Source of the DNA: Candidatus Nanopelagicales bacterium
GTDB taxonomy: Bacteria > Actinomycetota > Actinomycetes > S36-B12 > UBA5976
Assembly: GCA_040377565.1 (NCBI GenBank)
Contig: JBEION010000001.1
Span: 1 to 26,926 of the forward strand
Length of the DNA: 26,926 nucleotides
Direction of reading: 5' to 3'
The translations under genes and the position numbers were made by a program. Numbering within the stretch: the stretch's first letter is position 1; each line of letters opens with the position of its first letter. The notes below the pieces were generated by a model. The model saw nothing but the letters and a program-made list of their open reading frames with translations. It ran no database searches and was not told the DNA's origin. Positions 3,316 through 7,848 of this stretch are shown piece by piece.

Positions 3316-5355
3316 ATGTCGGATAACGAAGTAACACCAGAATCCAAACCACGTCGACGTGCCGCTGGCCGCCCGGCTGGACCACCAGTAGATGCACCGG
3401 CTGAAAAAGCCGATAAAGCGCCAGCTAAGGCTGCTGCCAAGAAGAAGGCGTCGGCTGCAAAGAAAGCACCAATTGCAGTTCCAGTTTTCCAATCTGCTCC
3501 AGTGACTGCTGCTCCTGCTAAGAAAAAAGCGGTAGCCAAGTCAGCAAGTAGCGAGGAAACCCTTTCGGTTGCCAAGAAGGGTCAAACCAAAAAGGCTCCA
3601 GCGAAGAAGGCGGCTGTCTCAGAATCCGCAGACAGTTCCGAGTCAACTTCAAATGAAGCTTCAGAATCTGGCGAAGAGCGCACCGGTGGCAATAACCGAA
3701 ACCGCAATCGCAACCGTCGTGGTGGCAAGAACAAGAACCGCGCGAAGTCAGCTAATGGCGCTGAAGGTTCCGAGTTAGAAGAGGGTTCAGCTGAAGCCTC
3801 GGACGAAGAATCAACTGAGTCAGCTGAAGCTGCTTCAGCTCGCAAACGTAGTCGTAAGCGCACTCGCGATGGTTCAGACAGCGAGTCTGGCTCAACCCGA
3901 CTAGATGCAAAGCGCAACCGTCGTCGAGATGGCCGCGATGCCGGACGTCGACGCGCACCAATCTTGACTGAATCTGAATTCCTTGCTCGTCGCGAAAACG
4001 TTGAGCGCGTAATGGTCGTTCGCCAACAAGGCGCTCGCACTCAAATTGCAGTTCTTGAAGATGGAATTGTTGTCGAGCATTACATCAATCAATCCAGCAG
4101 TGGCTCATTAGTTGGCAACGTTTACTTGGGACGCGTTCAAAACGTATTGCCAGGTATGGAAGCTGCCTTCGTTGACATCGGCAAGGGACGCAATGCGGTT
4201 CTTTACGCCGGCGAAGTTAACTGGGATGCAGCTGGCCTTGATGGTCAGCCAAAGAAAATTGAAACTGCACTTAAGTCAGGCGATCCCGTTCTGGTTCAGG
4301 TAACTAAGGATCCAGTCGGACAAAAGGGCGCTCGCTTAACTAGCCAGATTTCATTGCCGGGTCGTTTCTTGGTTTATGTTCCAAACAATCCAATGACTGG
4401 CATCTCGCGCAAACTTCCAGACCGGGAACGCTCTCGTCTGAAAACAATTTTGAAGGCAGTAGTTCCAGAAGATGCTGGCGTAATTGTTCGCACCGCATCA
4501 GAAGGAGCTAGTGAAGAGGAGTTAGGTCGCGACGTAGCAAGACTTGCTGCGCAGTGGACTGACATCGAAGCCAAGTCAAAAACTGCTTCACCTCCAACCA
4601 TGCTTTACGGCGAGCCAGACATTTCCATCAAGGTCGTTCGCGATATCTTCAACGAAGATGTTAAGAAGCTAATCGTTTCTGGTGCAGACGCTTGGGAGAC
4701 TGTTGAGCAATACGTAAGTTATGTTGCGCCTGATCTTGCAGATCGCTTAGAAAAGTATGTCGGCACAACCGATGTATTTACTGAGTACCGAATTGATGAA
4801 CAGATCGCTAAGGCACTTGATCGCAAGGTTTACTTGCCTTCTGGTGGTTCACTAGTAATCGATCGCACTGAAGCGATGACAGTTGTCGACGTTAACACTG
4901 GCAAGTTCATTGGTCAGGGTGGAAACCTCGAACAAACTGTTACCAAGAACAACATGGAAGCTGCAGAAGAAATTGTTCGACAGCTAAGACTTCGTGACAT
5001 CGGTGGCATCATCGTTATCGACTTCATCGATATGGTCCTAGAAAGCAACCGCGATCAAGTGATTCGTCGCCTGATCGAGTGCCTAGGTCGGGATCGCACC
5101 AAGCATCAGGTCGCTGAAGTTACCTCCCTTGGCCTGGTTCAAATGACCCGCAAGCGCATCGGCGCTGGATTGCTGGAAGTTTTCAGTGAGCCATGTGATC
5201 ATTGCCAAGGTCGCGGCGCAGTTGTGAACATGGATGGCCATGACGCCTCGAAAACCCCTAAAAACAAGGGTAAAAAGGGAAATCACGACCATTCCCATGA
5301 CAATTCCGCAGATTCCACCCCAGATTCAACCCCCGAAGAGTCTGTCTCGGTTTGA
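3316..5355 (+). CDS. rne: Ribonuclease E/G family (Rne/Rng) with long N-terminal disordered region
   Basis: S1 domain GNVYLGRVQNVLPGMEAAFVDIG, TEAMTVVDVNTG, RLRDIGGIIVIDFIDM, Zn-link CDHCQGRG. SD GGAG precedes the ATG. Confidence 0.95.
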   Translation: MSDNEVTPESKPRRRAAGRPAGPPVDAPAEKADKAPAKAAAKKKASAAKKAPIAVPVFQSAPVTAAPAKKKAVAKSASSEETLSVAKKGQTKKAPAKKAAVSESADSSESTSNEASESGEERTGGNNRNRNRNRRGGKNKNRAKSANGAEGSELEEGSAEASDEESTESAEAASARKRSRKRTRDGSDSESGSTRLDAKRNRRRDGRDAGRRRAPILTESEFLARRENVERVMVVRQQGARTQIAVLEDGIVVEHYINQSSSGSLVGNVYLGRVQNVLPGMEAAFVDIGKGRNAVLYAGEVNWDAAGLDGQPKKIETALKSGDPVLVQVTKDPVGQKGARLTSQISLPGRFLVYVPNNPMTGISRKLPDRERSRLKTILKAVVPEDAGVIVRTASEGASEEELGRDVARLAAQWTDIEAKSKTASPPTMLYGEPDISIKVVRDIFNEDVKKLIVSGADAWETVEQYVSYVAPDLADRLEKYVGTTDVFTEYRIDEQIAKALDRKVYLPSGGSLVIDRTEAMTVVDVNTGKFIGQGGNLEQTVTKNNMEAAEEIVRQLRLRDIGGIIVIDFIDMVLESNRDQVIRRLIECLGRDRTKHQVAEVTSLGLVQMTRKRIGAGLLEVFSEPCDHCQGRGAVVNMDGHDASKTPKNKGKKGNHDHSHDNSADSTPDSTPEESVSV

Positions 5356-5441: not shown

Positions 5442-6017
5442 GTGTACGCGATCGTTCGTGCTGGTGGCCGCCAGGAGAAAGTTGCCGTTGGCGACCTAAT
5501 TAGCCTTGACCGCGTTCAAGCCAAGCCAGGCGAGACAGTGGTTCTTCCAACTGTTTTGATCGTGGATGGCGACAAGGTCAACACCGACGCTAAAGGCGTC
5601 ACCGTAACCGCTGAAGTTATTGACCACAACCGTGGACCGAAAATCGAAATTCTTCGTTACAAGAACAAGACCGGTTACCGTCGTCGTCAAGGACACCGTT
5701 CAGATCTAACTGATGTGCAAATTATTTCAATCGGTAGCGAGAAGATCGCTGCTGGTGACAAGGCAACTGCAAAGGCAAAGCCAGTAGTTGCAAAGAAGGC
5801 TGCTCCTGTTGCTAAGGCCGCACCTGTTGCAAAGGCCGCTCCAGCAGCTAAAGCCGCAGAAAAGCCAGCTGCAAAGAAAGCTGCTGCTCCAGCAAAGAAG
5901 GCTGCACCTGCAAAGGCTGCCGCTCCAGCGAAGAAGGCAGCTCCTGCTAAAAAAGCTCCAGCCGCTAAGAAAGCTGCACCAGCGAAAAAAGCTGCTCCCA
6001 AAAAGACAGAGAAGTAG
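5442..6017 (+). CDS. rplU: 50S ribosomal protein L21 with long Ala/Lys/Pro-rich C-terminal extension
   Basis: [18 protein letters not shown] ... [23 protein letters not shown] core of ~98 aa, then ~93 aa of PAKKA-type repeats. SD AAGGAG, GTG start. Confidence 0.96.
5736..6014 (+). repeat. Degenerate coding repeats (PAKKA / PAKAA / PVAKAA) in the L21 tail
   Basis: [71 protein letters not shown]. Synonymous codons differ between units. Confidence 0.9.
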
Positions 6018-6026
6018 GTATAACTC

Positions 6027-6281
6027 ATGGCTCATAAAAAGGGTGCCTCCAGTACCAGAAACGGTCGCGACTCAAATGCACAGCGTTTGGGCGTAAAGCG
6101 TTTCGGTGGTCAGGTTGTTAACGCCGGAGAAATCATTGTTCGTCAGCGTGGCACACACTTTCACCCAGGTGAGAATGTTGGCCGTGGTGGAGATGACACA
6201 CTTTTCGCACTAGCTGCTGGCGCTGTCCAGTTCGGTAGCCGTCGCGGTCGTCGTGTTATCAACATTGTCCCTGCGGAATAA
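6027..6281 (+). CDS. rpmA: 50S ribosomal protein L27
   Basis: [29 protein letters not shown] and [10 protein letters not shown] signatures. Confidence 0.98.
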
Positions 6282-6348: not shown

Positions 6349-7848
6349 ATGACTTCGTTTATAGATCAAGTGACTCTCCATGTGCAAGGCGGTAATGGCG
6401 GACACGGTTGTGCTTCGGTTCACCGCGAGAAGTTCAAACCATTAGGTGGACCTGATGGCGGCAATGGCGGCAATGGTGGCGACGTAGTCCTAGTTGTTGA
6501 TCCATCCGTTACAACTCTTCTAGATTTCCATCGCAGTCCTCATCGCAGCGCCGGTAATGGCAAGCCTGGACAAGGCGATCACCGCAATGGTGCGTATGGC
6601 GAACATCTTGAATTAGCAGTTCCAGAAGGAACTGTAGTTTCACTTGCTGACGGCACAGTCTTGACTGACATGTTGGGCATTGGCACACGTTATGTAATTG
6701 CTGCTGGCGGTCGCGGTGGCCTTGGTAACGCAGCACTGGCCTCAACTAAGCGCAAAGCTCCAGGCTTCGCACTTCTTGGTGAGAAGGGCGTCACTCGCGA
6801 TGTCATCCTGGAACTTAAGACCGTTGCTGATGTGGGCCTAGTTGGCTACCCAAGCGCTGGAAAGTCTTCCTTGATCGCAGCTATGTCTGCAGCTCGACCA
6901 AAAATTGCTGACTACCCATTCACCACCTTGGAACCAAACCTTGGTGTGGTTCGCTCTGGCGAAATGATTTTCACTATGGCGGACGTTCCTGGTCTGATTC
7001 CTGGTGCAAGTGAAGGTAAAGGTCTTGGCCTGGAATTCCTTCGTCACATTGAGCGCTGTGCCGCGCTTGTGCACGTACTGGACTGCGCAACTCTGGAACC
7101 TAATCGCGATCCATTAACCGACTTAGATGTAATCGAAAATGAACTAAAGCAATACGGCGGTTTGGAAGATCGACCACGTGTTGTAGTTCTTAACAAGATT
7201 GACATCCCAGAAGGCCGCGAACTAGCTGAGTTTGTGCTTCCTGATTTACATGAACGCGGTTATCAAGTTTTCTTAGTATCAGCGGTTAGCCATGAGGGGC
7301 TAAGAGAACTTGGATTTGCACTAGCTGACATTGTTAAAGCCTCACGCGCTGAAGCAATCTTTGCCGCTGAGAATCGACCACGCGTTATCGTTACACCTAA
7401 ATCAGTGGATGACTCTGGATTCACAGTCACAGCCGAAAAGTCCGGAGCCGAAACTGTTCGTTACCGCGTTGTTGGCGAACGACCAGAGCGTTGGATTCAC
7501 CAAACCGATTTTGCCAACGATGAAGCCGTTGGGTACTTGGCAGACCGTTTGGCTAGAGCAGGCATCGAACTTGAATTGGCTAAAGCCGGCGCAGTCGCTG
7601 GCGACGAAGTTGTAATCGGTGAAGGCCCGAGTGCTGTTGTGTTTGATTGGGCGCCAACTGCAGGAGACTTACATCAAGGTCCACGCGGTACCGATCAGCG
7701 TTTGTATGACAAGCGCCGACTTAGTGCAGACGAGCGCCTTGCGATTCACAGAATTCGACAGTACGGAACAGGTGAGCCTGAAGAAGTTGTTGATCCACTT
7801 ATCATCGAAGATTTTGATGGAGACCTAGATGACGGTCAAACGAACTGA
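6349..7848 (+). CDS. obgE: GTPase ObgE/CgtA with actinobacterial C-terminal domain
   Basis: Gly-rich Obg fold ([28 protein letters not shown]), G1 [23 protein letters not shown], and C-terminal [16 protein letters not shown]. Confidence 0.97.

Follow-up and report, generated by a model that had tools for sequence, protein, structure and literature searches.

A genus-level polycationic C-terminal tail on ribosomal protein bL21 in a freshwater actinobacterial lineage

Low-complexity extensions rich in lysine are an established decoration of bacterial ribosomal protein L21, which the survey of Ntountoumi and colleagues (NAR, 2019) counted among those bacterial ribosomal proteins for which low-complexity regions occur in 20 or more orthologs, 34 of the 45 L21 regions exceeding 30% lysine (PMC6821194). 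The same survey found that lysine-rich low-complexity regions mark nucleic-acid binders, and its supplementary file 6 holds Ala/Lys/Pro tails on the L21 of Planktomarina temperata (a 73-aa region), Methyloceanibacter, Kiloniella, Sphingorhabdus and a SAR116 bacterium, with further carriers in many Alphaproteobacteria, Flavobacteriia, Bdellovibrio, Woeseia, Catabacter and Denitrobacterium (PMC6821194). Within the ribosome bL21 is an early binder and sits in the solvent-side lobe of the 50S subunit with H1, H41, uL13 and bL20 (PMC9687910). In chloroplasts, bL21c (spinach, PDB 5H1S, 5MLC and others) is roughly doubled by terminal extensions on the solvent side, which touch uL13c as well as plastid-specific proteins (PMC5071890, PMC5694952). 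Related decorations occur on other proteins, including the PAKKA tails of mycobacterial Hlp and Ku, which bind DNA and evolve fast (PMC3553676), and the H1-like extensions of mosquito RpS6 and RpL23a, which are independent additions to eukaryotic ribosomal proteins (PMC11764897). Here we describe the L21 gene in a window of 26,926 nucleotides, the whole stretch of DNA analysed, from a Candidatus Nanopelagicales bacterium (contig JBEION010000001.1). A sequence-only reading of this DNA had singled out the L21 tail without taking in that lysine-rich L21 tails are already documented in many bacteria, and the tail is accordingly a genus-specific example of a decoration already published for L21.

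The rplU gene occupies positions 5442..6017 on the + strand, starts with GTG, stops with TAG (6015-6017) and encodes a 191-aa protein present in single copy in the assembly. Residues 1-98 (5442..5735, +) form the bL21 core, a beta-rich fold delimited by the Pfam match to residues 1-97, AlphaFold2 confidence (pLDDT 83-95) and alignment. PF00829 aligns to residues 1-97 over model positions 1-99 with an E-value of 3e-27 and 95.1 bits (cut-off 27), and the NCBIfam model TIGR00061 scores 71.7 against a cut-off of 43.7; with both profiles above their curated cut-offs and an rplU-rpmA pair followed by obg, the product is a genuine L21. It is also the sole L21 match in the assembly (1.29 Mb, 48% G+C, 75% complete), and as the only L21 gene there rplU must be the working copy. 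The gene order is rne (3316-5355), rplU, rpmA and obg (6349-7848, identified by PF01018 and PF01926), all on the + strand, with rpmA (6027..6281, +; bL27, 84 aa, PF01016) beginning nine bases past the rplU stop. A putative Shine-Dalgarno element for rpmA at 6008..6018 (+), 8-14 nt before its start codon, is made of the last two rplU codons and the stop, reading GAG-AAG-TAG in tail-bearing relatives and GGG-AAG-TAA/TGA in tail-less ones. Its presence in both groups suggests translational coupling of rplU and rpmA.

Beyond the core, residues 99-191 (nt 5736-6014) make up a 93-residue tail (A42 K26 P12 V4 E3 T2 S1 D1 G1) that is 86% Ala/Lys/Pro, carries a net charge of +22 and has neither arginine nor aromatic residues, so that the earlier description of an L21 core of about 98 aa nearly doubled by about 93 aa of Ala/Lys/Pro stands as given. 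Lysine accounts for 26 of the 93 residues (28%), rising to 17 in the distal 54 (31%), which places the tail within the type catalogued by Ntountoumi and colleagues, C-terminal low-complexity regions with about 30% or more lysine. Three parts can be distinguished: a head of residues 99-122 (5736..5807, +), beginning SEKIAAGDK and conserved throughout the genus in its residues and for the most part in its DNA too; a hypervariable Ala/Lys/Pro repeat body (5808..5990, +) with a unit of about AAPAKK, the site of in-frame indels between strains; and a C-terminal motif ending KKTEK (5991..6014, +) that is kept among the nearest variants. Conservation of this motif probably reflects in part a constraint on translation initiation, since the last rplU codons overlap the rpmA ribosome-binding region. 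The DNA of the tail has a period of 18 nt, or six codons, and identity between copies is just 61-82%, in agreement with the varied synonymous codons noticed earlier in the repeats. Three open reading frames that overlap this region, on the minus strand at 5687-6028 and 5727-6035 and in the +1 frame at 5788-6096, were rejected as shadows of low-complexity coding DNA, and a GAGAAG hexamer found at both ends of the tail was set aside as a sign of an insertion event, being confined to the window's subclade.

AlphaFold2, run with a 35-sequence alignment, assigns residues 101-191 a pLDDT of 43-65 and places a three-residue helical turn at the head as their sole secondary structure, so the tail is predicted to be disordered. 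In its Ala/Lys/Pro composition, terminal position, six-residue repeat and predicted disorder the tail matches the PAKKA-type, H1-like class, and the HupB and histone H1 likeness proposed for it therefore holds in composition, though it does not extend to domains: searches of the rplU product for linker-histone (PF00538) and HU-IHF (PF00216) domains found neither, with PF00829 the one match at E-values up to 0.01, and phmmer with the tail alone against PDB sequences gave 0 matches. The tails of HupB/Hlp/MDP1, HupS, M. smegmatis Ku and Streptomyces topoisomerase I share composition, repeat style, rapid evolution, terminal position and phylum with the L21 tail (PMC3553676; PMC6821194 ref 92), but PAKKA/H1-like tails sit on DNA-binding folds with DNA binding demonstrated, whereas the present tail sits on a ribosomal protein. 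The C-terminal domain of histone H1 is likewise a disordered polycation rich in Lys, Ala and Pro, yet it is not homologous; the composition is convergent, and the window's L21 lacks the globular domain.

Among L21 proteins, the tails of Ntountoumi and colleagues resemble this one most closely, being Ala/Lys/Pro-rich and placed directly after a core of about 100 aa, but none of their carriers belongs to the window's class, and the tail described here is of independent origin. Long L21 proteins of 216-223 aa modelled by NCBIfam as NF008916 and NF008915 are a different matter: the window's L21 scores 72 against a cut-off of 193 and 50.5 against 281, so far below that it lies outside those lineages. 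The ESM Atlas holds L21 clusters of 185-198 aa in Bacteroidota and Actinomycetota. The bL21 deposited with the solved 70S ribosome of Flavobacterium johnsoniae (PDB 7JIL chain R, 147 aa) is also over-long and aligns through query residue 143, into the tail; its own tail is about half as long, the similarity there is compositional, and the structure paper makes no mention of it. The extensions of chloroplast bL21c differ more clearly, consisting of partly folded domains of other composition at both termini.

To place the tail phyletically, we took L21 lengths from aligned start to stop in the DNA of 93 loci; the stop-to-stop length of the open frame is a misleading proxy, as the upstream DNA is often open too. 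Within the genus, a Nanopelagicales-type freshwater lineage, each of the 25 complete L21 genes read has an extension. In 22 of these the tail has 77-118 aa, 65-86% Ala/Lys/Pro, 23-31% Lys and a net charge of +11 to +25, while three species have no polycation, one retaining a 12-aa stub and two carrying a 46-aa tail with an acidic end and a net charge of -2. The loss in these three species indicates that the polycation is dispensable, at least in some backgrounds. Outside the genus, the family has seven other genera; the 26 L21 genes read in five of them all lack the tail (101-104 aa), and in a sixth the open frame amounts to just 105 aa (one gene, open frame only). It is likewise absent from all 40 L21 genes from nine other families of the order, which encode 103-115 aa in a sample for which the longest open frames were picked. 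The expectation that a typical L21 has about 100 aa is thus borne out at 101-115 aa for the rest of the family and order. In an evenly drawn class-wide sample of 401 genomes from 163 genera, counting stop-free matches, in-frame extensions occur in at least this genus and one other lineage, and nowhere else among the 150 matches listed (there are 330 further matches); the sample contains four unpublished genomes (G318, G323, G330, G529), on which no specific claim rests. Class-wide alignments running past residue 110 were rejected as tails, as nearly all hold stop codons and therefore represent read-through into rpmA. The other lineage, a different genus of the same class (G309), has a 163-aa L21 (L140:484-975, -) whose tail of about 60 residues is rich in Ser, Thr, Lys, Ala and Glu; this is an independent, unrelated extension of other composition.

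The tail starts exactly where the tail-less relatives stop (I-S-A-G-K-stop), and its alignment shows a head pattern of the form IG-x-x-K-[IVL]-A-x-x-D-K common to all deep branches of the genus, from which we conclude that the tail has a single origin, in the common ancestor of the genus. The reading we favour, at a probability of roughly 0.55, is that the genus ancestor equipped a functional bL21 with a disordered, polycationic C-terminal tail whose composition is of the histone-H1/PAKKA type, that this tail projects from the back of the 50S subunit and acts as a non-specific RNA or polyanion binder, and that it has since been under selection for length, charge and composition; its position and its binding are the inferred parts of this reading.

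Conservation across a genus also argues that the tail is neither an assembly nor an annotation accident. The L27 N-terminus is cleaved off after translation in Firmicutes, and a comparable removal of the L21 tail, or an artefact of assembly or annotation, would mean that the tail has no place in the mature protein. Assemblies tend to collapse repetitive DNA, a possible reason for the single 113-aa form of the protein. Yet 25 species genomes have this architecture, as do 875 database proteins drawn from independent assemblies and contigs of four runs that belong to four different studies, with no internal stop and with indels in frame only, and no protease gene lies between rplU and rpmA; we consider a tail missing from the mature protein very unlikely. 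The stretch is found in lake, river and freshwater metagenomes of 12 studies. Contigs from river-water RNA libraries cover the core, its junction with the tail, and the tail together with rpmA as far as the start of obg, which suggests that the tail region is transcribed, all of these being contigs and RNA libraries being able to contain DNA.

Comparison of close relatives shows how the tail evolves. In the five species closest to the window the cores differ at 1-13 of 291 nt (0.3-4.5%), whereas the tails differ at 13-19% of aligned bases and are interrupted by gaps of 3, 6, 9, 15, 18, 24 and 30 nt, all 16 of which are multiples of three. Among the 120 nearest metagenomic variants, most with cores 97-100% identical, tails range over 71-128 aa with a median lysine content of 26% and a net charge of +12 to +29, and in 118 of them the last residues are KKTEK, exact or with one residue changed. 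Contigs from lakes and rivers include an allele lacking one 18-nt unit and another in which 85 nt replace 40 (45 extra nt), and indel turnover of the tail body is ongoing. The earlier statement that the repeats do not stem from recent DNA slippage thus applies within one allele, where the copies are degenerate, and fails between strains, where tails with in-frame indels accompany near-identical cores. Across the tail the +1 frame is open for 102 codons (ORF 5788-6096), so a frameshift would not truncate the protein, and all relatives nevertheless stay in the Ala/Lys/Pro frame. Together these patterns show selection at the level of translation on tail length, composition and charge, with the repeat body turning over freely. 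The sequence-only reading had named free drift of length and composition among close relatives as the observation that would count against it; length does drift (12-118 aa among species, 71-128 aa among variants), while composition and charge are held.

The same comparisons bear on the main rival to our reading, in which the exposed bL21 C-terminus simply tolerates a runaway slippage of Ala/Lys/Pro repeats and the tail persists as a harmless, near-neutral expansion. Such a history would account for the extreme turnover of length and sequence between genomes with near-identical cores and for the loss or replacement of the polycation in three of the 25 species, and it agrees with L21 being non-essential in E. 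coli and with the repeated gain of such tails in unrelated phyla (PMC6821194). It fits less well with a tail that is in frame in 25 of 25 species and the 120 nearest variants, that stays in a narrow band of composition and charge behind a conserved head, and that shows no frameshift although none would be truncating. Nor would 93 nitrogen-costly, lysine-rich residues be free in a cell whose genome is streamlined (1.0-1.8 Mb in this group) and in which L21 is among the most abundant proteins. On balance we regard a harmless expansion as possible but rather unlikely.

In the functional reading that we prefer, selection would act on the length, charge and composition of the tail and not on its sequence, and the six-codon units would turn over fast by in-frame slippage or unequal recombination. 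Since bL21 lies in the solvent-side lobe of the 50S subunit, the tail most likely extends outward at the back of the ribosome, where the conserved 24-residue head would probably dock on an adjoining rRNA or protein surface. The lysine-rich body would then probably serve as a non-specific, multivalent binder of RNA and other polyanions, among them the ribosome's own rRNA during assembly, mRNA and nearby nucleic acid, and possible roles include an RNA chaperone in early 50S assembly and a tether to mRNA or nearby nucleic acid. Neutralisation of bulk charge is an unconvincing role, as the +22 charges amount to less than 1% of the phosphate charge of the ribosome.

Tails of the same type on other proteins of the genome that handle nucleic acid (RNase E, IF-3, IF-2, ParB, topoisomerase I and a DksA-type protein) count in favour of a binder. 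Such Ala/Lys/Pro segments are nevertheless rare in the genome, a six-frame scan of the 1.29-Mb assembly finding one in just six open frames at a strict threshold and in eight at a loose one; counting such proteins by HMMER with the tail as query was abandoned because the correction for composition bias strips most matches and leaves no usable count. Among the ribosomal proteins of the 75%-complete assembly L21 alone has such a tail. The similar stretch reported for the N-terminus of the neighbouring Rne was found at residues 29-100 of RNase E/G (3400..3615, +; within rne at 3316-5355). The N-terminal third of this RNase E/G is a low-complexity mosaic of Ala/Lys/Pro, acidic Ser/Glu, Asn/Arg-repeat (NRNRNRNRR) and Arg-rich blocks, and its C-terminus is rich in His, Asp and Ser. 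IF-3 (infC, G000:C65:81-995 = L141:84-995, -) carries a 122-residue C-terminal extension in which an Ala/Pro/Val/Glu spacer is followed by Lys-rich repeats. Lys/Ala/Pro segments also occur at the N-terminus of ParB (G000:C88:3449-4570, -), at the C-terminus of topoisomerase I (G000:C167, -) and in the N-terminal region of IF-2 (G000:C268, +), these three proteins being named by eye from their translations with no profile search. A 275-aa DksA/TraR-type C4 zinc-finger protein (G000:C31:4150-4977 = L172:151-978, +) bears an N-terminal Ala/Lys/Pro tail of about 100 residues, an arrangement that we take to recall Streptomyces DdbA (DksA plus an H1-like part) with the order of domains reversed. Finally, a stand-alone protein of 103 aa (G000:C16:3841-4152 = L171:142-453, -) consists entirely of Lys/Arg/Ala/Pro repeats and gives weak, sub-threshold matches to H1-like HC2 and Burkholderia H1-like models.

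This company of proteins also touches on a third account, in which the tail mainly tethers ribosomes to nucleoid DNA or polyphosphate, or offers a platform for lysine acetylation or methylation in the manner of HupB, H1 and AlgP. The tail is composed like DNA-binding PAKKA tails (PMC3553676), the H1-like AlgP is reported to organise polyphosphate granules (PMC9239181), and ParB, topoisomerase I and the HC2-like protein are carriers on the DNA side in the same genome. Sequence, however, does not tell a DNA partner from RNA or polyphosphate, HU and linker-histone domains are absent, and the second protein to gain a tail in the genus is IF-3, a factor of the RNA side. We judge it quite unlikely that tethering to DNA or polyphosphate, or lysine modification, is the main role.

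The IF-3 tail is younger than that of L21. A long IF-3 tail, 95-136 aa after the core, is limited to a subclade of the genus, the post-core length being 27-38 aa in other genus members and 15-28 aa in sister genera, which indicates that the L21 tail came first and the IF-3 tail later. The two tails share a further feature. Tails from one subclade of the genus hold an in-frame cassette of about 50 nt, encoding a peptide around SDAKATKAPASA. The 33-nt core of the cassette is kept even at synonymous sites, and this holds for Ala and Ser codons seldom used in the rest of the tail. The cassette folds into a hairpin of 12-13 bp at -19 to -22 kcal/mol (z -3.7 to -5.1), whereas ordinary tail segments fold no better than shuffles. 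One stem position with an A·G mismatch is paired as A-U in one variant and as C-G in a second. Of the 41 genomes of the genus 12 have the cassette, against none of 52 from the seven other genera, and a scan for exact copies across 185,579 species genomes recovered it in 8, and on 24 metagenome contigs as well. All 33 instances lie in tails, 21 in L21 and 12 in IF-3, at varying positions and sometimes in two copies; one or two copies are found in 62 of the 120 nearest L21 variants. The window's own L21 has no cassette, unlike the L21 tails of relatives such as L098 and L099, and in the window's genome the cassette is located in infC (G000:C65:164-196, -). One public MAG contig titled Bifidobacterium breve (L177, CAMBGF010000001.1) holds this genus's L21 with the hairpin cassette, and for that reason the organism name of the record looks wrong.

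An identical 33-mer is shared between L21 and IF-3 genes, and this identity together with the distribution of the cassette points to exchange at the DNA level between the two tails, and possibly to a selected RNA structure. Beyond the cassette, the longest substring common to the DNA of the L21 and IF-3 tails does not exceed synonymous-resampling controls. That the two tails form a linked system, with the L21 tail first, the IF-3 tail later and a hairpin cassette of about 50 nt exchanged between them as a possibly selected RNA, is a tentative proposal that we consider unlikely as a whole. The cassette is nonetheless more unusual than the L21 tail itself and is the by-product most worth a separate look. 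Were the hairpin a selected RNA, it would be a regulatory RNA embedded in coding sequence and common to the rplU-rpmA and infC-rpmI-rplT operons; it could then be an operator or rRNA mimic for the neighbours bL20 and bL21, or a signal for mRNA stability, or it could instead be a miniature mobile element that inserts in frame, like the palindromic elements of Rickettsia. In the four genomes tried for rRNA mimicry by the cassette and for rRNA changes near the bL21 site, the assemblies lack 23S rRNA.

A stable hairpin cassette in relatives' tails, and the overlap of the last rplU codons with the rpmA ribosome-binding region, might be taken to mean that the tail region serves mainly at the RNA level, for instance as a spacer or a structure that governs translation of rpmA, with the peptide incidental. 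Against this, 51-nt segments of the window's own tail are no more stably folded than shuffled sequence (z +0.8 and -0.6), Rfam gave 0 matches for the rplU and infC loci at E-values up to 1, and amino-acid composition is kept while nucleotides vary, so that a role chiefly as RNA seems highly improbable.

The bL21 tail leaves, as a finding alone, our knowledge of ribosomes unchanged; lysine-rich tails have been added to L21 repeatedly in unrelated bacteria, many of them aquatic. What the present lineage adds is a cleanly dated origin within one very abundant, genome-streamlined genus of freshwater actinobacteria, with sister genera that lack the tail serving as natural controls and with hundreds of natural variants of tail length. 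The cost of 93 additional lysine-rich residues per ribosome, borne by a streamlined cell, argues for a function, and the genus is a good system in which to weigh RNA chaperoning in 50S assembly, tethering to mRNA or the nucleoid, and neutral expansion against one another.
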